A stretch of DNA of 34,983 bases. Source: a virus (taxonomy: Duplodnaviria > Heunggongvirae > Uroviricota > Caudoviricetes). This document shows, piece by piece, positions 1 through 34,983 of this stretch. The notes under the pieces were generated by a model that was given only the letters and a program-made list of their open reading frames with translations, was not told the DNA's origin and ran no database searches. The position numbers and the translations under genes were made by a program. Each line of letters opens with the position of its first letter. The stretch's first letter is position 1. The DNA is taken from IMG/VR virus record IMGVR_UViG_3300045988_118832. One strand, given 5' to 3'.

Positions 1-681
1 ACCTGAAGGCGCGCGAAATACCCAGGAAATTTCGTTACCACCGGGATTGTGAAACACTTCGCTGGTATACCTGAAATCACGTACTGCACCAGAATCGGTG
101 CTGCTGATAGTGATATCGCTACTGCCATCAAACAGCACATTGTTAATCCTGCGGGCCGTCTGAAGCCGGGTTGCCGTTCCGGCGTTGCCGCTGATGTTGT
201 TGATGGTGATATCCGAAGTCAGGGGCATGTTGTTGACCTTACGCGCTTTTGGCACACCGCTGATGTTATCCAGAAACAATTGTTTATTCGGGATGTCTGC
301 GCCGTTACGGTCTTTTGCCAGTCTGGCGTTTGCGTTATCCATCGCAATCCTGACCGCTTTTGGTGTAGCCGCTTCTGTTTCTGATTCACTGTTAACAGCA
401 CTGTTAAGCCGCACTACGCCTTTTTGCGTCAGCGATGCATCCGGGACTTTCTGGCCAATAAACGAGGTCAGCGCCTCAACCAGCTGGTTTTGTTTTTCCG
501 GGTCAGGGGTGACGCCAGCCTCTTTAAGGACGTTAATCACCTCCTGCTGCAAATCACGCGTTGCTGCCTGATGATTATTCATAAATTCAGCAGTAACGAT
601 GGTTCCCTCAATTCCCTGAGTCGGGTCACCATCATGAAATAACTTATCCGGCGTATTCACCGGGGGCATTAAACTCTGCAT
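1..681 (-). CDS. Tail fibre protein, N-terminal 227 codons; 3' end beyond window start
   Basis: Not in the ORF track because it runs off the edge. Hand translation: MQSLMPPVNTPDKLFHDGDPTQGIEG...DASLTQKGVVRLNSAVNSESETEAATPKAVRIAMD..., the conserved tail-fibre motif as I recall it from P2 gpH. ATG at 681-679 with AGGAGA 6 nt upstream; no stop through position 1. Confidence 0.7.
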   Translation of the reverse strand, partial: MQSLMPPVNTPDKLFHDGDPTQGIEGTIVTAEFMNNHQAATRDLQQEVINVLKEAGVTPDPEKQNQLVEALTSFIGQKVPDASLTQKGVVRLNSAVNSESETEAATPKAVRIAMDNANARLAKDRNGADIPNKQLFLDNISGVPKARKVNNMPLTSDITINNISGNAGTATRLQTARRINNVLFDGSSDITISSTDSGAVRDFRYTSEVFHNPGGNEISWVFRAPSG

Positions 682-727
682 TATTTCTCCTGTAGTTATT
701 ACAAATAAACAACATCAGACCTTTTGT

Positions 728-1684
728 TTAAGGCTCTGTGATAACGGCAAAGTGCAGCCCATTATGGTTAACTACTAATGGGGTACTGCTGTTATTTGCT
801 GTTTGTAAATGTATTTTGTTAATTGTCATCGGCTCCGTGGTCTGCCTTCCCGACTGCCACAGAACGGTATTAACTGTCAGTGGTTCAATAGTTCGCCGCT
901 CCGACAATAGTTGCATTCTGTTAATCAGCAATGGTTCCTGACTCAGGTTTCCCGCCTGAAGCTGCGTATTGTTGATTGTGAGCGGTTTACCTTTCAGAAC
1001 AGGAATAACTGCAAAATGCATTCCGGCATTATTTATCAGCAGAGGCGCATCAGCATGACATACTGACTGAAACTGAATTCTGTTAATTGTCAGTGGTGAT
1101 ACTGGCTCTGGCTGAGATGTGATTTCATAAGTGAAATAACAGTCTGTAAAAGCCGGTTTAAGGTCTTTAAACGTGTTTTCTAAAATGGATTCACCAAAGG
1201 CCGTCAGCGGTTCGCCGGTTGCCGATGCGCCCGTTCTGAACCGGTAGACAGGTGTTTTTGTCCCGATAACATTGACCTGCCACGCCCAGCGGATTTCTGG
1301 TATCAGCAGGCGGTCGCCGCAGCGGTTTATCCCCACCCGGAATGGTCGCGGCTCCGTAATGGTGATGGTGTAGCCCAGACTGGCGGCAAGGCTTTTGAAG
1401 TAAGGGATTGACAGCCCCCCCGTGGCAGCCATTTTTACCAGAATGTTCTGACGCCGCTCCTGTTGTGTTGCCCCTTCACGAGGAATAACACCGTACACGC
1501 GCTCCCAGTCGGACAGCGTCATCGATGCCTGCAACGGGGTGATTTGTGTCAGAACGCGCGCCGCTGACGCCTTCACGACTTCCATGACGTCAGCCTCGGC
1601 TGTCAGTTCTGCGGAAATATATTTCCCGTTCAGGTCATAACTGACAGGTGGCAGCATGGCGCGAAATAAATCGACCATATTCAT
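728..1684 (-). CDS. Mu gp48-like tail/baseplate protein (DUF2313/YmfQ-like N-terminus, by recollection) with a seven-fold C-terminal repeat
   Basis: ORF 728..1720; preferred start is the ATG at 1684 (MNMVDLF...) with GAGGGG 7 nt upstream, just after the stop of the upstream gene. Position between J-like gene and fibre. C-terminal ~115 aa are tandem ~17-20 aa units (PLTINRIQFQ, PLLINNAGMHFAVI, PLTINNTQLQ, PLLINRMQLL, PLTVNTVLWQ, PMTINKIHLQ, PLVVNHNGLHFAVI). Confidence 0.6.
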   Translation of the reverse strand: MNMVDLFRAMLPPVSYDLNGKYISAELTAEADVMEVVKASAARVLTQITPLQASMTLSDWERVYGVIPREGATQQERRQNILVKMAATGGLSIPYFKSLAASLGYTITITEPRPFRVGINRCGDRLLIPEIRWAWQVNVIGTKTPVYRFRTGASATGEPLTAFGESILENTFKDLKPAFTDCYFTYEITSQPEPVSPLTINRIQFQSVCHADAPLLINNAGMHFAVIPVLKGKPLTINNTQLQAGNLSQEPLLINRMQLLSERRTIEPLTVNTVLWQSGRQTTEPMTINKIHLQTANNSSTPLVVNHNGLHFAVITEP

Positions 1685-1688
1685 AAAA

Positions 1689-2768
1689 TCACCCCTCGCG
1701 CGGAAAAGGCTGAATATCAATATTTCCCGGGCGCAACCATTCCCACGTTGACGCGTTAATAATGGCTTTTACGTTGTCCGCTGGCGTAATGATTCGCCGG
1801 TCACTGACACCGGAAATTAATGAAATCTGGGTTTCCAGTTGTGAAATTATTAATTCCTGCCCCGGCTCCAGCCGGTTCATAAAATCCGTGATAACGTCAG
1901 TTATTTGCGGTTTTATCTGCTCAACGGTCAGGCCGCTGGTTTTTACCCGGACAACGAAATCAACGGCTTTTTTCGTCGGGGCCAGCACCATCGTGTCCTT
2001 CGCTGTGACCGGGCGGACTTCCTCAATATGTGCCAGCACGGCATTAATCAGTTCCTGTGAGGGAAGGTCATTGGCTGACGTAATGGCCACATCAACCGTT
2101 CCCAGCCCACGACGCAATGACTCCACATATGCCGAGGTAACACCATCCACTTCCAGCGCCCAGCGTTTGTAATCATATTTGTTACCGCCAGCGGGCGGCC
2201 TGCGCAGAATATCCAGATAACGCGCCAGCAGGTCGGCGTCACTTTCCCTGTCCGTTCCGCCGGTCAGGGATTTAATCGTCACCGTGCTGTTGATGCCTTC
2301 CGGCGGACTGACCAGCGTTGCCGTCTGCGTTGTGGATGCGTTCGTATGTGCGCCCGTGGTGGTGCTTTTTGCCGTCACCTCCGCGCTGCCTTCATCACCG
2401 ATGGTGCAGTCTGCGGTGGTGGCCAAGCTGACACCTTCACCACGAATTTCCGCACCGGCTGGCAGCATCTTACCGGGTGTGCCGGTAATCACTGCCGGGC
2501 CGGATGAGGCCGTTGCTTTTTTACGAAAAACATTGCGTGCGCGGCAGTGCAGCTCCAGATATTCAGGGTCTGCCGTGTCAGGAAACACCTGACGGAGTAT
2601 CCACCCCTGATGCATATAAAGCCCGTCAGCCACGCCAGATACGGCATTTGCACGAATGCGGTAATCGCTGTCAGCGCCGGTGTCGATGGTTTCTCCCGGC
2701 AGGGCGTTAGCGATATCACGTAGCTGGCGTTCTGTGTTTTCAGCAACGCCCGGAACTGGAAACGGCAT
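1689..2768 (-). CDS. Baseplate J-like protein (Mu gp47-like)
   Basis: 359 aa ORF; size and position between the gp46-like and gp48-like genes. Confidence 0.75.
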   Translation of the reverse strand: MPFPVPGVAENTERQLRDIANALPGETIDTGADSDYRIRANAVSGVADGLYMHQGWILRQVFPDTADPEYLELHCRARNVFRKKATASSGPAVITGTPGKMLPAGAEIRGEGVSLATTADCTIGDEGSAEVTAKSTTTGAHTNASTTQTATLVSPPEGINSTVTIKSLTGGTDRESDADLLARYLDILRRPPAGGNKYDYKRWALEVDGVTSAYVESLRRGLGTVDVAITSANDLPSQELINAVLAHIEEVRPVTAKDTMVLAPTKKAVDFVVRVKTSGLTVEQIKPQITDVITDFMNRLEPGQELIISQLETQISLISGVSDRRIITPADNVKAIINASTWEWLRPGNIDIQPFPREG

Positions 2769-3118
2769 TACATAATCCTCACAGGGTGTTCAAACGTCTG
2801 CGGTGTGCCCGCGTTATCCGTGACGGTGATTAACAGCAACAACCAGCCGCGCTGGCCCGCTTTCGTGTCAACGGTAATGGATTTTGCCCGCCCGTCATCA
2901 AGCAGGGGCTGAAGCGCCTGACTGGCATACTGCGCCGCCAGCCTGTGAACACGGGAAACGTCTTTTTCCCGCTTCAGTTCGTGCAGGCGTGACCCCAGCG
3001 ACGCATCCGCCCAGTAACTGCCAAGCGGCGTCGCCAGTCGCAGATAAACCGCGTTATGAAGTGTATAAATCCGGCGGCGTTCGTAGTCGCCGGTTGCAGG
3101 TGAAATCGTCTGGTCCAT
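2768..3118 (-). CDS. Baseplate wedge protein, GPW/gp25 family (Mu gp46-like)
   Basis: 116 aa ORF, ATG at 3118, conserved position after the V-like gene. Confidence 0.65.
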   Translation of the reverse strand: MDQTISPATGDYERRRIYTLHNAVYLRLATPLGSYWADASLGSRLHELKREKDVSRVHRLAAQYASQALQPLLDDGRAKSITVDTKAGQRGWLLLLITVTDNAGTPQTFEHPVRIM

Positions 3119-26997: not shown

Positions 26998-27072
26998 AAA
27001 TAAACTCTCCCTGACTCAGGCGTAAGCCAGCCCCGGCGGGTTTACGCCATATACAAATAAAATTAAAAACAG
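26995..27072 (-). repeat. Hairpin-plus-RBS repeat unit, copy A
   Basis: Minus strand TGTTTTTAAT...GGCGTAAACCCGCCGGGGCTGGCTTACGCC...GGAGAG..ATG; about 65 bp shared with copy B. Confidence 0.5.
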
Positions 27073-27077
27073 ACTTA

Positions 27078-27629
27078 TTAACTACGACGTTCAGTTTTCC
27101 GGTAATGACGGTCAACAGATTTAACGAACGCCTTCACATCACGGGAAATCGAATCCAGCGGATAATATTCATCCAGTAGTTCCATTCCACTGAATCGAAT
27201 CTGAAAAAAATCAGGCTTATCTTTATATGACTCCATCAGGTCAATAAACCGCAACTGACGCGGGAGGGATTCCTGCACGCCTGAAATAGTGAGCAAATCA
27301 TCTTCAAGGATGTATGCGAGGTCTTCCATATCCTTACAGTCAGACAGCATGGTTATTCTTGTCAGTATGTTCCGTGTGGCGATATACAGCGCTGCTGTGT
27401 CATTCGCCATCATGGCGAACAAATCCCCCTGAATATACGCCCCGCTACTGGCCACAGCATTCCCGGCAATCTGGGCATCAAGCACCACATCCATAAAATT
27501 ACCCGGTGCTCCCAGACAGCCCAGCAAGGATGACGCCCATAACGTTACATTGGTTAACTTCTCAGATGAACGGGTGGCAAAACCTTCAGGAGTAACAATA
27601 AAATCCCAGACTTTATCTTTCATATACAA
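27078..27629 (-). CDS. Hypothetical protein (183 aa), low-GC cargo gene
   Basis: ATG with AAGAGGA upstream; by-eye GC on sampled lines is about 40-45%, clearly below the structural genes; bracketed by two copies of a ~65-bp hairpin-containing repeat. Confidence 0.5.
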   Translation of the reverse strand: MYMKDKVWDFIVTPEGFATRSSEKLTNVTLWASSLLGCLGAPGNFMDVVLDAQIAGNAVASSGAYIQGDLFAMMANDTAALYIATRNILTRITMLSDCKDMEDLAYILEDDLLTISGVQESLPRQLRFIDLMESYKDKPDFFQIRFSGMELLDEYYPLDSISRDVKAFVKSVDRHYRKTERRS

Positions 27630-27697
27630 ATCCTCTTGATTCAGGCGTAAGCCAGCCCGGCGGGTTTACGCCTGTTTTAAATAACAATTAAAAACAA
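27627..27697 (-). repeat. Hairpin-plus-RBS repeat unit, copy B
   Basis: Same hairpin (one C fewer in the loop) and flanks, directly upstream of the 183-aa gene start. Confidence 0.5.
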
Positions 27698-29012: not shown

Positions 29013-29252
29013 TCATTGCCATACGACGGTACAGCCGTCGATACAGGACGTTTTAACCACGCGGCGCAGGCCGCTGAATGTCTGAACGATTTCCGTTACC
29101 GGCCATACAGGACCACCCACAGGCGGGCAGGCATAAACCACAGGTAAACGGTGATGCTGCCCCGTTACGCGACCGCCAGTGGTATGGATAGCCACACGGG
29201 CACGGGAACGGACGGCATTAATGGCCTGCTTTTCCATCATTTTGTTCTCCAT
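29013..29252 (-). CDS. Hypothetical early protein (79 aa)
   Basis: ATG overlaps the stop of the MuB-like gene (TGATG-type coupling). Confidence 0.4.
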   Translation of the reverse strand: MENKMMEKQAINAVRSRARVAIHTTGGRVTGQHHRLPVVYACPPVGGPVWPVTEIVQTFSGLRRVVKTSCIDGCTVVWQ

Positions 29253-30145
29253 CAGTGAATTAACATTTCTGCGAATTTATCTATGGCCTGCACACTGACC
29301 GGCGCATCGCTGATATCGCAAATCCGGTACACACCGCGCGCCAGTTTGAACAGGCGGCGGGCATTACCCAGCGAGCGCGCGTAAAGCGCCTCGCTGATTT
29401 CCGGTTCTGCTGCTTCCGGCATCAGCCCGGTGGCTATCTGGTTAAAATCTTCCTGCGCCAGCGTGTCGCCCAGGTTAAGCGCCAGCGCCACGCGGCTGTA
29501 TAACTGCGCAAATTCACCACGACGCCCCTTGAGATTAATCAGAAGACGAGGCATACCCGCCAGGACAACCCCGATACCAGCTTTATCATGCAGACGGCGC
29601 AGAACCTCCAGTGCGCGATAGGGGAGCAGTTCAGCTTCGTCCACCATCAGCAGACGACCGGAATCACGCAGTTCGCGCACACAGGCATCAATCAGTTCGT
29701 GAATGTTGCCGCGAACCTTTACCCCCAGCTGGCGGCACAACTCCTCAAGCAGTGTCCTGGCTGTATAGCCCGGGTCAGCCTCAATCAGGACCGCATCCCG
29801 GTTTCTGGCGGCGTATTCACGCAGAATCATTGTTTTGCCAAGGCCAGCTGCGCCATACAGCACACAGATTTCACATTCCAGGTGAGCGTAGGCCAGCACC
29901 TCCAGTCCTTTGGCAGCCATACCAGTGGTCACAAACTTTGCTTTAATACGGCGGCTGTTTTCCTTTTCCCGCTCACGGGTCACAAAGGCAGAAATGCGTT
30001 CTTCAATATCAGCCATATCGCCCTGATATTTACCCTGCAAATACTGGTTGATAACGGCGCTGCTACGACCAATTGCACGGGCGACGTGGGTCTGCGTATA
30101 GCCGCGACGGGCCATTACGTCATTTAATTGCGTAATTAAACTCAT
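29252..30145 (-). CDS. MuB-like transposition ATPase / target DNA activator
   Basis: 297 aa; N-terminal HTH-like region then Walker A-like LYGAAGLGKT and Walker B-like LLMVDEAE; directly downstream of the transposase. Confidence 0.85.
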   Translation of the reverse strand: MSLITQLNDVMARRGYTQTHVARAIGRSSAVINQYLQGKYQGDMADIEERISAFVTREREKENSRRIKAKFVTTGMAAKGLEVLAYAHLECEICVLYGAAGLGKTMILREYAARNRDAVLIEADPGYTARTLLEELCRQLGVKVRGNIHELIDACVRELRDSGRLLMVDEAELLPYRALEVLRRLHDKAGIGVVLAGMPRLLINLKGRRGEFAQLYSRVALALNLGDTLAQEDFNQIATGLMPEAAEPEISEALYARSLGNARRLFKLARGVYRICDISDAPVSVQAIDKFAEMLIH

Positions 30146-30163: not shown

Positions 30164-32206
30164 TTAACGGTTGTTTGTGCCGTTTTTCTTTAAATTGCGC
30201 TCGCGTTCAGATGCGAATAAATAAAGTTCTTCTTTTTCCTTTTTCTCCGGGCGCTCCAGACCAAATCCAAAATTAAACTCAGATTTCTGCGTAATAGCCG
30301 GGGTAAGCTCGCGTTTCGCCTCTTCGATTTTCTGCGTGGCCCGTGCAATGCGGCCTCTGGCGCGTTTCTCCTGCTGCTGTTCGATAACAGCTTTCGGGAA
30401 CGCATCAACCTTATTACCGTTCCAGATGGCATCGCAGATATAAGAACCGTCCATCCGCCTGACAATCACGCTGTTTGCGTCGTGAATGTCGTAACAAACC
30501 CTGACTTCATTTCCGTGCTCTGCTGCCAGTTCTGTTGAGAAATAGATGTTTCTGAATAACACCACTTCACCGCGTCGCACCGTGCAGATGCTTTCCGGTC
30601 GGAACATTTCATGCAGTTCTTCCGGCGACAGCATGTCGATTTCAGCTTTCTGCTCCTTTATCAGTTTCCGGCGATACGCTGCCGGGCTGTAATGTTCACC
30701 ATCCTCTTTGCGGGGAAGGCTGCTGTGTGGCCGGTTGTTATACCGTTTCACCTCCAGCTCTATTGCGGCCATCAGTTGCTCAAAGGTGGGAACTTCTCCC
30801 ATAGCCTGAACCTGCCGCTTTGTCAGCTCTTTCCCTTTGTGGGTGGCCTTAATTGCTGACTGTGTGATGCGTTGCTGCATCATCACCGTTTCCTTGTCTG
30901 CATTTTTTGAGCAGTACGTCTGGAAACTCAGAGCCACATCTTTGGGTATTCCTTTGTTTGCTCGTTCTATTACCCCGCGCCCCTGCGGGTTACCAGGTAT
31001 CCCCGTGTGATGCTCCACACCCAGTCGGGGCAGAATCCCGGTAATATCGGCATCAAGTACCTGGTTTTTTTCACCACCCCCGTTATCGGAGTAATAAATC
31101 AGCGGTATCCCGTGTTGTGACATGCCATGACGCAATGCATCAGCAACGGCCACTACGTTCTCCGACAGGGACAGCGACCAGCCCACAATAAAGCGTTGCC
31201 CTGCATCCATAACCAGTGTCACTTCTGGCCGGAATGTATTCCCGGTGGCAGGGCTGAATGCCATCAGTTTCATACAGTGACCATCCCCGACCCATACCGC
31301 ATTAACCGGTAATGTGCTCCAGTCGCGCCGCACAAAGGGATTGAGCGAACGCCAGGCTGAACCGGTGGAGCGGAAACGCTCTTTAACAATCACCGGGACG
31401 CTGCTTAACACCCGTCTTACTGCGTGAACTGAAGGCAGTGCCGCCAGGATTCCCGCATCGTTCGCGTGTTTTTCATGCCACCAGGCTGAAAACTCGCGAT
31501 ACGCATATTCAATGGTCGGGCGCTTCCATGAGCGATAGAACATAAAGAAATCGCTCAACCACCAGACCTGCTCCCACGGTGTTCCCTTATGATGACCGGG
31601 AGCCAGTAACGCCAGTAACTGATTGGCATCACCGCGCGCCATCAGCCAGGTGGAATACCATTCCTGTAAACATCCCCAGCTGACGCCAGTTCGCTTACCC
31701 TGTCTGGCGTTGGCAGTACCTGCGGCCTCGATAATACGCTCGGGCAATGCCATCTGACGAATACCATCAACGATGTGTTTTACTGCTGCCGTCCTGGACA
31801 TTCCGGCGTATTCACGCAGTTTATGCACTTCGGTAGCCAGCAATATCCGCGCATCAGCGATGGCCTTTTGCTTGTCGGTCAGTGCCTGAACTTCGCGTAA
31901 TGCCAGCTCCGGGCATTTGACCATCACTTCCAGTTCATCGCGAACGGCGACGTTTTTAACTGCCTTCTGCTCAACCACGGCGGGCAGTTGTGCATCTTCC
32001 AGGACCTGATGAGTCAGGCGCTTACGTAAAACTTTCTGCGCTTCAGCGGGTAGGCAGTCGATGTGATACTCGAATGCTTTGGTACCTTCACGCTTGCGCC
32101 TTAATTCAGGTTTATTTTCAATTACACGATCTAGACGCGCCCTGACATTGTGTTCACGTGTTGGTAGCCCTCCAATGCCAGCACACTCTTTTGCTGTAAT
32201 CCACAT
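30164..32206 (-). CDS. MuA-like DDE transposase
   Basis: 680 aa; N-terminus MWITAKECAGIGGLPT... parallels Mu A (M.W...KECA..GLP); position after the ner-like gene. Confidence 0.9.
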   Translation of the reverse strand: MWITAKECAGIGGLPTREHNVRARLDRVIENKPELRRKREGTKAFEYHIDCLPAEAQKVLRKRLTHQVLEDAQLPAVVEQKAVKNVAVRDELEVMVKCPELALREVQALTDKQKAIADARILLATEVHKLREYAGMSRTAAVKHIVDGIRQMALPERIIEAAGTANARQGKRTGVSWGCLQEWYSTWLMARGDANQLLALLAPGHHKGTPWEQVWWLSDFFMFYRSWKRPTIEYAYREFSAWWHEKHANDAGILAALPSVHAVRRVLSSVPVIVKERFRSTGSAWRSLNPFVRRDWSTLPVNAVWVGDGHCMKLMAFSPATGNTFRPEVTLVMDAGQRFIVGWSLSLSENVVAVADALRHGMSQHGIPLIYYSDNGGGEKNQVLDADITGILPRLGVEHHTGIPGNPQGRGVIERANKGIPKDVALSFQTYCSKNADKETVMMQQRITQSAIKATHKGKELTKRQVQAMGEVPTFEQLMAAIELEVKRYNNRPHSSLPRKEDGEHYSPAAYRRKLIKEQKAEIDMLSPEELHEMFRPESICTVRRGEVVLFRNIYFSTELAAEHGNEVRVCYDIHDANSVIVRRMDGSYICDAIWNGNKVDAFPKAVIEQQQEKRARGRIARATQKIEEAKRELTPAITQKSEFNFGFGLERPEKKEKEELYLFASERERNLKKNGTNNR

Positions 32207-32214
32207 AACACCAC

Positions 32215-32487
32215 CTATGCAGCGTTGCTATGCGGATTTTTATTCCGATAACGTGATGGCCAGATAACTTCCGGTTCCACACCAATCGCTTCTGCAATTG
32301 CTGATTCATATGCAGGTACGCGGCGATAAAACACGTTACGCATTGCTCCAGGTTTTAAGCCGCGTACACGCTCCATCGTAGTGATATCAACCCCTTTATT
32401 ATCAAGGGCGGCTGCAATTGCTTTGCTAGACCAGTCTTGTCCGCGACGAACAAACAAGTCAGTTAGATCTTGTCTCGATAACTGCAT
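32215..32487 (-). CDS. Ner-like DNA-binding protein
   Basis: 90 aa; C-terminal EPEVIWPSRY matches Mu Ner/Nlp (KPEVIWPSRY). GGAGAGGA upstream of the ATG. Confidence 0.8.
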   Translation of the reverse strand: MQLSRQDLTDLFVRRGQDWSSKAIAAALDNKGVDITTMERVRGLKPGAMRNVFYRRVPAYESAIAEAIGVEPEVIWPSRYRNKNPHSNAA

Positions 32488-32625: not shown

Positions 32626-33303
32626 ATGAAAAACTCTTTAAAAAGAAATGGTTACGCAGATAAAACCGCAAGCAAGCAAACCGAGAAAGAACGGATTATT
32701 GAGGCTATGGATATAATCCGCTTCGGTGAGCGCCTTAAATCAGCTATGGAAGACAGCGGATTAAATTACATGGCACTGTCAAAACTGAGTGGGTTGTCTG
32801 AAGCCACAATACGAAAATACGTGCATGGAAAGATCTATCCAGGTATAGACAGCGCAGCTTTGGTGGCTCACGCATGCAATGTTCCTGTGGAGTGGTTGAT
32901 ATCAGGAAAATCCGTCATTGAAAACAATAATCCGCAACAAAGTCCGACCGAAAGAACAGAATTAAACCTCCTGTTACAGCGCATGAATACTCAAGATTTA
33001 GATGCTTTGCTTGATGTTTTTTACAACATCGGTATCAAAGGAGTCCTAAAACGCCTACAACAACCCACCAGGCAAGCTAAGCAGGCCTGCAACGACCTAG
33101 ACGAACAGGAGAATGCCATCAGAAGCCTGAACATCAGGGAATCGCTTAAAGACGCTATGTGTATGGCTCTGGATGGAAATGAAGAAACTGACAAAGAGAT
33201 TTTGCGACGCATCGAATCTCGTGCACGGACTGGGTCGCCAGGTGGTGAGACCATTGCCACGCCGGAGCAAGAAACGAAACCTGTAAGCAAAAAACCAGCA
33301 TGA
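32626..33303 (+). CDS. Prophage repressor, HTH XRE/cI-type
   Basis: Divergent from the ner-like gene. ORF track starts at a TTG (32584); ATG at 32626 preferred. HTH-like LNYMALSKLSGLSEATIRKYVHG. Confidence 0.7.
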   Translation: MKNSLKRNGYADKTASKQTEKERIIEAMDIIRFGERLKSAMEDSGLNYMALSKLSGLSEATIRKYVHGKIYPGIDSAALVAHACNVPVEWLISGKSVIENNNPQQSPTERTELNLLLQRMNTQDLDALLDVFYNIGIKGVLKRLQQPTRQAKQACNDLDEQENAIRSLNIRESLKDAMCMALDGNEETDKEILRRIESRARTGSPGGETIATPEQETKPVSKKPA

Positions 33304-33454
33304 ACGCCTACTACTTGGTAGGCGTATGCTGCCAACTAACTAGCGACATCCAACAAAACCAATACCGACGACAGATAAGAAAGGGATAAATCAAGCAAGA
33401 TTAAAACGGGTTTTAAAATCTTTTAAAAGGCGATCGCTTTCCTGCACCGCCGGA

Positions 33455-33596
33455 TCAAAACAGTCCAGAATAAAGCGTAAAAAAAGGCATTTTTGGTCAT
33501 TTTCTTCAAAACGATCCAGAATCGGCGAAATCTCTCACATCCCGCACCACTCAAGGCTCGCAGGCTCATCTGGTCTGCTCGTACTCAGTCCAGAAT
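33455..33596. repeat. Three direct copies of ATTCTGGA (minus-strand sense): candidate transposase end-binding sites
   Basis: TCCAGAAT at 33464-33471, 33515-33522, 33589-33596; two copies share ATTCTGGAyyGTTTTGA. Located after the repressor gene where Mu has L1-L3. Confidence 0.4.
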
Positions 33597-34618
33597 TGAT
33601 CACTACCCCACATAATGCCTGACAAAACACAACCAGAAGGTGCTCGAAACGTCCAGCTGTGCTCGTTCCCGCCCGGGTTGTAAAACACCTCACTGGTATA
33701 CTGAAAATTCTGTACGCCACCTGTTTTGGTCTGGTAGCGGGCATCGAAGTTTCCGTAGTCTGACGGTATAACCTGACGCCCGCATCGCCAGTTTCCCGCA
33801 TCATCCATATACGCCTGACCGTCCGTACCATTATCCGTACGGCTATTATTTATCATGTAAATGCCAAACTGCTTATTCCCAAGACCAGCCAGGAAATACT
33901 TTCTGTCTGCATGATCCTGACGCAGAAGCGCCTGAGCAGCATCAGTATTTATCCTGTTTTTCCCGAAAATAACGTTGTTGTCACGCATCTGAATCCACGT
34001 TCCGTTACTGCTGTTAATCGCAAAACGGCCTGCAAATACATCTTCTGTAACATCCAGACCGTGTCCCATAGTTATGCGACCGGTCCTGAGATTAAGCGTA
34101 AAGGGGCGTAGCGGCCCAATATCACCACTCTCGCCCTGATTTTCCCGGGTAGGAATGAGGTGCAGACACTCTTCCGAACGACGAAAAATCAGACCAAAGG
34201 CTTCGTTGAAAATCCTCAGTGCATTAACACCACGGATTTTCAGCTCCCCGGTCATGGTGTCTCCATCACGCTGAACGGCATTTTTTGCCTTATCCACCGT
34301 GGGTTTTAATCCGAGGTTTTCAACAGCCTCATCACTGTCTTCGACATCCGAAAGATTATTTTTTATCAGCAATGCCTCTTCGTTAATTGCACCGCCCACC
34401 AGTAATAATATGGCTTTATATAACTGGTCGTGTTCCTCTTTATTCAGTTCTATCCCGGCCTTCTCAATGACACCACAGATTTCCTCCTGAAGGGCATCCC
34501 ACATGGCACTGTTCAGCCAGGTGGCATGACGCCCTGTACGAATATTCCCGTCAGTAAATCCGTTCTTGCCCGGGCCAAATTTATCTTTAACTGCTGTCGG
34601 AGTGTCAATTCTGTGCAT
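33566..34618 (-). CDS. Tail fibre protein (350 aa), outside or at the edge of the Mu-like element
   Basis: ATG with GGGAGG upstream; N-terminus MHRIDTPTAVKDKFGPGKNGFTDGN... and GDTMTGEL motif are typical of fibres; C-terminal YTSEVFYNPGGNEHSWTFRAPSG matches the left-edge fibre. Confidence 0.7.
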   Translation of the reverse strand: MHRIDTPTAVKDKFGPGKNGFTDGNIRTGRHATWLNSAMWDALQEEICGVIEKAGIELNKEEHDQLYKAILLLVGGAINEEALLIKNNLSDVEDSDEAVENLGLKPTVDKAKNAVQRDGDTMTGELKIRGVNALRIFNEAFGLIFRRSEECLHLIPTRENQGESGDIGPLRPFTLNLRTGRITMGHGLDVTEDVFAGRFAINSSNGTWIQMRDNNVIFGKNRINTDAAQALLRQDHADRKYFLAGLGNKQFGIYMINNSRTDNGTDGQAYMDDAGNWRCGRQVIPSDYGNFDARYQTKTGGVQNFQYTSEVFYNPGGNEHSWTFRAPSGCVLSGIMWGSDQFWTEYEQTR

Positions 34619-34648
34619 ATTAAACCTCCCGTGAATGAAATATCAGAA

Positions 34649-34983
34649 TTATGTCCTTGCCTGATTAAACAATTCCGCTGTGAAAGTCAGTTCACCCTTT
34701 GTGAAAGGCGTTTCTCCGCCTGGCTGGGCCATAAAACTCTGTGAGACAGTCGTCCAGCTGTTTGTGTCGCTTTGTACGCCATTCTCTGTAATCGTTGCAC
34801 CTGCATGGCTGCCATTTTTCACTTTCCAGGCCAGGCGGTTATTGGGGGCATCAGCACCGCGGTAAGTGACCGAGGCCATAACAGCCACAACATCACTGTT
34901 GCTGTTATCCACCGCACCAAACGTGGCCTGTGCTGCATTCAGGGAGGGCGAGAGCATCAGATATCCGGCCTCGCTGGCAGAGG
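34649..34983 (-). CDS. C-terminal part of a tail/fibre-associated protein; 5' end beyond window
   Basis: Frame stays open upstream of the track's Met to the window end (...SASEAGYLMLSPSLNAAQ...); stop at 34649, 30 nt before the fibre gene start. Confidence 0.4.
   Translation of the reverse strand, partial: SASEAGYLMLSPSLNAAQATFGAVDNSNSDVVAVMASVTYRGADAPNNRLAWKVKNGSHAGATITENGVQSDTNSWTTVSQSFMAQPGGETPFTKGELTFTAELFNQART

Follow-up and report, generated by a model that had tools for sequence, protein, structure and literature searches.

Related tail-fibre tips in a Mu-like prophage and in the resident prophage whose fibre gene it interrupts

Why would two tail-fibre genes with similar tips lie at opposite ends of a single phage sequence? 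The question is raised by a window of 34,983 nucleotides, which is the whole stretch of DNA analysed here (virus record IMGVR_UViG_3300045988_118832, Caudoviricetes). The initial annotation, made from its letters, described a fibre module shared between the phage's own fibre at the left edge and a second fibre at the far edge, and offered horizontal exchange of receptor-binding modules or a recombination hotspot as explanations.

Both peptides on which that comparison was built are present. FRYTSEVFHNPGGNEISWVFRAPSG corresponds to residues 203-227 of the open reading frame read leftward from the ATG at 681 (window 1-75, minus strand), and QYTSEVFYNPGGNEHSWTFRAPSGCVLSG to residues 305-334 of the right-edge open reading frame of 350 amino acids (33566-34618, minus strand). 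BLASTP aligns residues 195-227 of the left fibre with residues 297-329 of the right one (window 1-99 and 33632-33730, both on the minus strand), with 24 of the 33 residues identical (73%, pairwise E 7e-15), and the DNA of these in-window copies, put at three-quarters identity by eye, is 73.7% identical across 76 nt (E 3e-8). The likeness of the two tips is real and not a product of chance. The N termini had been assigned to one family as well, and both fibres indeed match the N-terminal parts of phrog_2617 and phrog_1858, but their relationship is only distant, with 23% identity over 160 amino acids (pairwise E 1e-7 by BLASTP).

Two prophages in one window

Positions 1-33611 are a Mu-like transposable prophage of about 35.2 kb in full, with nearly all its genes on the minus strand. 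About 1.9 kb of it lies left of the window, namely the last 40 fibre codons, the tail fibre assembly gene (Tfa), a gene for a hypothetical protein of 351 amino acids (hyp351) and the right end of the phage. A copy 99.8% identical occurs in E. coli O166:H15 strain JNE21-009 (locus L001), where the annotated genes are a repressor, a ner-like gene, the Mu transposase, an AAA ATPase, GemA, Mor, lysis genes and terminase, followed by Mu gpT-type head genes, sheath, tape measure, baseplate gp44-48, fibre, Tfa and the 351-aa hypothetical protein. In the window, the Pfam families of the called genes agree with the RefSeq annotation of this copy and place the repressor at 32626-33303 (plus strand), the ner-like gene at 32215-32487 (minus, HTH_35), the MuA-like transposase at 30164-32206 (minus, Mu-transpos_C and, weakly, HTH_Tnp_Mu_1) and the MuB-like ATPase at 29252-30145 (minus, Pfam AAA_22). 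A megablast search of window positions 1-3000 against GenBank phages gave no match. The early region also holds a 547-nt segment (27072-27618) that is missing from the JNE21-009 copy, lies between direct repeats of 38 nt (at 27032 and 27656, 79% identical; region 27032-27693) and includes an open reading frame of 183 amino acids (27078-27629, minus strand) with no match in Pfam or PADLOC; it looks like an accessory gene cassette.

The fibre at the left edge is this phage's own. Its first 227 codons occupy 1-681 on the minus strand, cut by the window edge, and are 100% identical over 227 amino acids to 267-aa proteins (P0001-P0004 and WP_001191121.1, the latter from the L001 and L016 loci). It is a homologue of the Mu tail fibre S, with PF03406 at residues 83-123 (E 6e-19) and matches to the S chains 5yvq_A (E 6e-25) and 8ju3_A (E 4e-26). 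Just upstream lies a baseplate wedge gene of the gp48/YmfQ (Mu gp48) type (728-1720, minus strand; PF10076 Phage_Mu_Gp48 at residues 21-199, E 6e-30; phrog_203). This gene has a C-terminal extension of about 130 amino acids past the Pfam domain, with internal direct repeats (843-884 and 1056-1097; 799-828 and 1063-1092), and RefSeq labels its equivalents in both prophages as partial pseudogenes.

The left end of the Mu-like prophage occupies 33304-33611 on the minus strand, and its terminal sequence ...CTACCCCACA ends at 33611. All 21 E. coli genome matches to this end break off at 33611, and they lie in different genes, including rhs, a methyltransferase gene on a plasmid, chbG and a pflB-like gene. 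The sequence ...GATCACTACCCCACA recurs in nine other contigs whose repressor is identical, each leading on into unrelated genes, and at least 10 different flanks stand behind the identical ...CCCCACA terminus. Since the matches stop at 33611 before unrelated flanks, the left end of the phage is exactly at 33611; the collinear match with JNE21-009 reaches 33613. A terminus at about 33537 was considered and rejected, as the 76 nt up to 33611 are also phage DNA. TTCTGGA motifs are found at distances of 18, 92 and 143 nt from the left terminus, the right end in complete copies reads TGTAACTTCGCG... (TGTAAC...), and the termini are thus of the TG...CA form, with TTCTGGAC located 17 nt inside both ends. 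Two complete copies have their ends at L001 5535 and 40771 and at L016 1811 and 37047, respectively. The target duplication is unambiguous for only 4 bp in these two complete genomes (TTCG in L001, compared with the empty site in locus L002, and AGGG in L016), against the 5-bp duplication of Mu.

Beyond 33611, the remaining 1.37 kb at the right edge of the window is target DNA. The right-edge fibre belongs to this flanking DNA of a separate, resident prophage with a phiP27-like contractile tail. Window 33613-34983 corresponds to L001 46903-45533 reversed (99.7% identity), which holds the gene for WP_000554744.1, and the resident fibre (33612-34618, minus strand, codons 1-335 of 369) matches the tail fibre family phrog_6859 (E 4e-171). 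In related E. coli the resident prophage adjoins tRNA-Ser/hyaA, and it carries a module for sheath, tube, tape measure, DNA circularisation and baseplate. The 5' part of its fibre gene, together with the adjoining wedge gene, is 90.7% identical to the phiP27 fibre region over 550 nt; among known phages, the right end of the window matches this region and a few short fibre segments only. Further right lies the 3' end of a gene of 349/350 codons with no assigned function (hyp350; phrog_8291; 34649-34983, minus strand), of which the Mu-like phage holds a copy 95% identical. The two fibres are related, as the initial annotation held, but it missed that they belong to separate prophages with their boundary at 33611/33612.

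The junction interrupts the resident fibre gene after codon 335 of 369, within the C-terminal tip, and displaces its last 34 codons. With the intact fibre and the empty site visible in L002 (strain JNE070796), the window reads ...CCCCACA|TAATGCC... where the intact gene reads ...GAACAT|TAATGCC.... The sequence that had been taken for the end of the right-edge fibre is accordingly no natural end: the peptide noted there exists, but comparison with the intact fibre in L002 and L001 shows that the last 15 codons and the stop (33566-33611, minus strand), encoding MWGSDQFWTEYEQTR, are read-through into the left end of the Mu-like phage. The insertion presumably inactivates the resident fibre. This junction is absent from the complete E. 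coli genomes searched, and exact scans of the collections viral_contigs and genome_contigs for its 31 nt gave no match. It recurs in a second contig (ERZ27229629:k119_13349) that shows 2 mismatches over 11.4 kb.

Mu-like phages of this family also recur inside other prophages. Two sites are occupied in one resident prophage (that of the window and that in JNE21-009), and further inserts are found in a 'phage tail protein' gene in UMNF18 and in an Stx1a phage record that is annotated with an inserted Mu-like phage (LC727895.1).

Extent and relatives of the shared tip

Because the window edge truncates the left copy of the tip, its remainder is taken from four phage copies that are 99.8% identical (L001, L004, L005 and L016). 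All four hold 40 further fibre codons left of the window and agree there except for one K240N variant, and a Caudo_TAP Tfa gene follows immediately downstream in each. This Tfa matches PF02413 (E 5e-19) and Mu U (5yvq_B, E 4e-15), and it is also present in contigs from other samples that read past window position 1. Strain JNE21-009 hosts both prophages, so the full-length comparison of the two fibres was made there. The alignment past the window edge, which the initial annotation had proposed, finds homology reaching the C terminus and continuing into Tfa: the last 73 amino acids of the two fibres are 78% identical (E 1e-40), and the Tfa proteins encoded after them share 67% identity, the likeness being mostly in their first ~105 residues. 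At the DNA level, tip and Tfa form one contiguous block of 527 nt at 82% identity rather than a short generic motif. It starts at about window position 76 and extends leftward, with about 450 nt beyond the window edge, and spans the fibre tip, the stop codon, the ribosome-binding site and the first ~105 Tfa codons. Its longest perfect run, of 26 nt, reaches from the fibre stop across the ribosome-binding site to the Tfa start. An identity of 74-82% together with so short a perfect run marks the copies as old relatives and poor substrates for recombination. They are not recent duplicates either, and the recombination hotspot that had been suggested finds no support in these sequences.

The horizontal sharing of a receptor-binding module, proposed in the same place, is borne out by the distribution of the tip. 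A tblastn search with the 73-aa tip matches 124 phage records, among them Rac-SA53 (78% identity), phAPEC8-like phages (59%), the P2 group (52-54%) and SfMu (53.5%), so that this tip sits on P2 H, SfMu, Rac-SA53 and phAPEC8-like fibres. Conversely, the shaft occurs with other tips elsewhere: Collar-domain tips follow the first 110-130 residues of the Mu-like fibre in proteins of 309-344 amino acids from other E. coli prophages. The tip also matches residues 494-554 of a 'short tail fiber' chain, 9cuy_c (E 5e-14), and its direct match to the solved Mu S tip is weak (domain i-E-value 25); its assignment to the Mu S / P2 H type therefore rests on SfMu and P2 H (52-54% identity) and on the 9cuy_c match.

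The borders of the block appear to follow the contact between fibre and chaperone. In the Mu S-U structure work, as summarised in PMC9608196, the N-terminal domain of Tfa binds the distal fibre and its C-terminal helical domain trimerises, and this contact agrees with the block borders seen here. The co-inherited unit would thus be the tip together with the Tfa N-domain. By homology with Mu S-U (5YVQ; PMC9608196), the Tfa N-domain would bind the distal end of the fibre and help the trimeric tip to fold, and the folded tip, again by homology, may contact a receptor on the cell surface. If the N-domain binds and folds the tip in this way, the two would be inherited and exchanged together.

Switching, exchange and the origin of the junction

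The evidence above must be weighed against several other accounts of the two fibres. That the similarity is chance or a generic short motif, or that the junction is an assembly chimera, might be entertained because the in-window overlap is just 33 residues and the window is a metagenome contig. However, the pairwise E-values, 7e-15 in the window and 1e-40 at full length, and the 527-nt block at 82% speak against chance. As for the junction, nothing longer than 4 nt, and hence no k-mer, is shared across it, it falls exactly at a Mu terminus that was defined independently by many loci, and the second contig carries it too; together these observations mean that it is not an assembly artefact. This account has a negligible probability. 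Another possibility is that a single phage owns both fibres as alternative receptor-binding genes, or that they form part of a switch of the Gin/Cin/Pin or shufflon-like type. Mu itself sets the precedent, since it switches its fibre tips by G inversion, and the resident fibre retains a relic of a gix core, AAAACCTCGG, which encodes ENLGL, at 34308-34319. Mu gix encodes IQNLGLQE at the homologous place of S, consistent with the Mu S sequence matched, and the 34308-34319 site agrees with 16 of the 26 positions of gixL; it stands without a partner site or an invertase, and we interpret it as a remnant kept by conserved coding. Where Mu S has the gix-coded residues, the Mu-like fibre reads FLDNISGVP. 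Core-like sites occur at a chance count, as the gix core AAACCNNGGTTT with 1 mismatch has 2 hits in the window, one of them the 34308-34319 site, against 1.3 expected. With up to 3 mismatches allowed, the full 26-bp Din crossover consensus is absent from the 49.5 kb of the JNE21-009 locus (L001). No serine invertase is annotated in the two complete Mu-like copies or the resident prophage, and the interval between hyp351 and the right end of the phage is only ~110 nt. The search for gix-like sites and an invertase beyond the window start, covering the L001 locus and the complete copies, thus found none. Moreover, the boundary at 33611 leaves the second fibre outside the element, and in place of inverted alternative tips between paired inverted crossover sites there are direct copies, 33.6 kb apart and only 74-82% identical, on the same strand and flanking the Mu left end. 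The initial annotation was right that this is no Gin-type invertible cassette, and a switch of any of these kinds is very improbable.

Somewhat less remote, but still unlikely, is the idea that the nested prophages actively swap host-range genes (the tip with the Tfa N-domain, and the 350-aa protein) across the hyp350/hyp351 and tip/Tfa direct repeats that bracket the insert. Such recombination would give chimeric fibres or delete the Mu-like phage, with the contig breaks reflecting a mixed population, and the phrog_8291 protein of 350 amino acids would then be a mobile host-range or tail accessory factor. In its favour are hyp350 and hyp351 (full genes at L001 44818-45867, plus strand, and L001 5642-6697, minus strand), which are 95% identical in amino acids and 96% in nucleotides over 1041 nt, with identical runs of 110-209 nt. 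They are far closer to each other than the fibre tips are, which suggests a more recent transfer. They match nothing in Pfam, NCBIfam, PADLOC, PDB sequences or GenBank phages, and phrog_8291 only; the resident hyp350 precedes the fibre, and the Mu-like hyp351 follows Tfa by the right end. In addition, both contig ends fall in genes repeated between the two prophages, and among relatives of the Mu-like fibre, tip variants (P0020 and P0037) approach the resident tip by degrees. The second contig shares the window's left end and stops at 34921, so that both assemblies end exactly at window position 1, at fibre codon 227, inside the tip. The right-hand break fits the 96% hyp350/hyp351 repeat, which served as a control for the repeat-boundary test; the left break was rejected as a repeat boundary, as the 82% identity of the tip is too low for collapse at k=119. 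Against active exchange, assemblers break at repeats without any recombination, the longest perfect run of the tip block is 26 nt, and hyp351 accompanies the Mu-like phage at every insertion site seen, which indicates that it was not acquired in this host locus.

A further alternative concerns only how the junction formed and leaves the nature of the shared module unchanged. In JNE21-009 the Mu-like phage is inserted at the start of the baseplate-assembly gene of this resident prophage, 6.1 kb from the site in the window, and its fibre and the resident fibre point opposite ways. Both tips lie on one strand in the window, as had been stated, but given the opposite orientation in JNE21-009 this is incidental and set by the direction of insertion. 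The junction could have come from intramolecular replicative transposition out of a position like that in JNE21-009, 6.1 kb off in the resident prophage, an event expected to turn round the baseplate-fibre segment in between and to produce another Mu copy in inverted orientation. A 99.8% identical copy of the phage does occupy the same resident prophage in JNE21-009, the window junction joins the Mu left end to L001 46903 reversed, as an inversion product predicts, and two hits in one prophage of ~40 kb among many random sites would otherwise be coincidental. On the other hand, the phage copies in the window and in JNE21-009 differ by ~0.17% and two indels, so the strains are not very recent relatives, and prophage DNA is non-essential and tolerates insertions, with UMNF18 and the Stx1a phage also carrying Mu-like inserts in phage genes. 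This origin of the junction is possible, though rather unlikely. Inversion through recombination between hyp350 and hyp351 was rejected by reasoning from the JNE21-009 map, as it would not give the observed junction. The reading that we prefer, and hold with high confidence, is that of nested prophages in which the resident fibre is cut and two versions of one tip/Tfa cassette are present through old horizontal exchange. A Mu-like phage has inserted in the fibre gene of an older resident prophage, both carry homologous host-recognition cassettes, and the likeness of the cassettes would reflect old modular ancestry by horizontal exchange rather than a duplication, a switching system or a recent swap between the two.

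Comparison with known fibre systems and implications

Mosaic tail-fibre modules are reportedly common to unrelated phages, as in the P2 H, Mu S and P1 S fibres, and the shared tip is an ordinary instance of this mosaicism rather than part of a switch. A close parallel is Mu S/U (TfaMu; PDB 5YVQ and 8JU3): in the Mu-like fibre, the likeness to the constant part of Mu S falls in residues 79-148 (E about 1e-25), and both phages arrange their genes in the order gp47-gp48-fibre-Tfa. However, with 267 amino acids against 504 the fibre is only half as long as Mu S, its tip is only distantly similar to that of Mu S, and, unlike Mu with its gix, S'/U' and gin, the phage has no gix at the homologous place, no S'/U' and no gin. 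In the tip itself, there are parallels in P2 H/G and SfMu, where the P2-group fibre (annotated H in fiAA91-ss) and the SfMu fibre have a tip 52-54% identical, likewise followed by a Caudo_TAP chaperone, and where tip and chaperone N-domain travel together. Those mosaics differ from the present case, in which two versions lie 33.6 kb apart through the nesting of prophages and not by the design of a single phage. The Din-family segments (Mu G/Gin, P1 C/Cin and e14 P/Pin) also hold alternative C-terminal fibre parts with their cognate Tfa, and the resident fibre keeps an ENLGL-coding core relic; in contrast to them, this locus has no invertase and no paired sites, and its copies are direct and belong to different elements. 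Finally, the resident prophage resembles phiP27, an Stx2e phage whose tail is Mu-like, in its sheath, tube, tape-measure and baseplate module, whereas high identity to the resident fibre is confined to the 5' fibre/wedge segment, with a different tip and a different remainder of the fibre.

For annotation, the locus illustrates that what looks like a 'second fibre' on the border of one prophage can belong to another prophage that flanks it, and in genome scans the ends of transposable phages should be fixed before repeats are read across them. The gene that is 95% identical in both phages (hyp350/hyp351) is the only element here that might repay more work. Beyond annotation the finding has little importance: the truncation probably disables the fibre of the resident prophage, and the shared cassette is an example of fibre tips travelling with the fibre-binding half of their chaperone.
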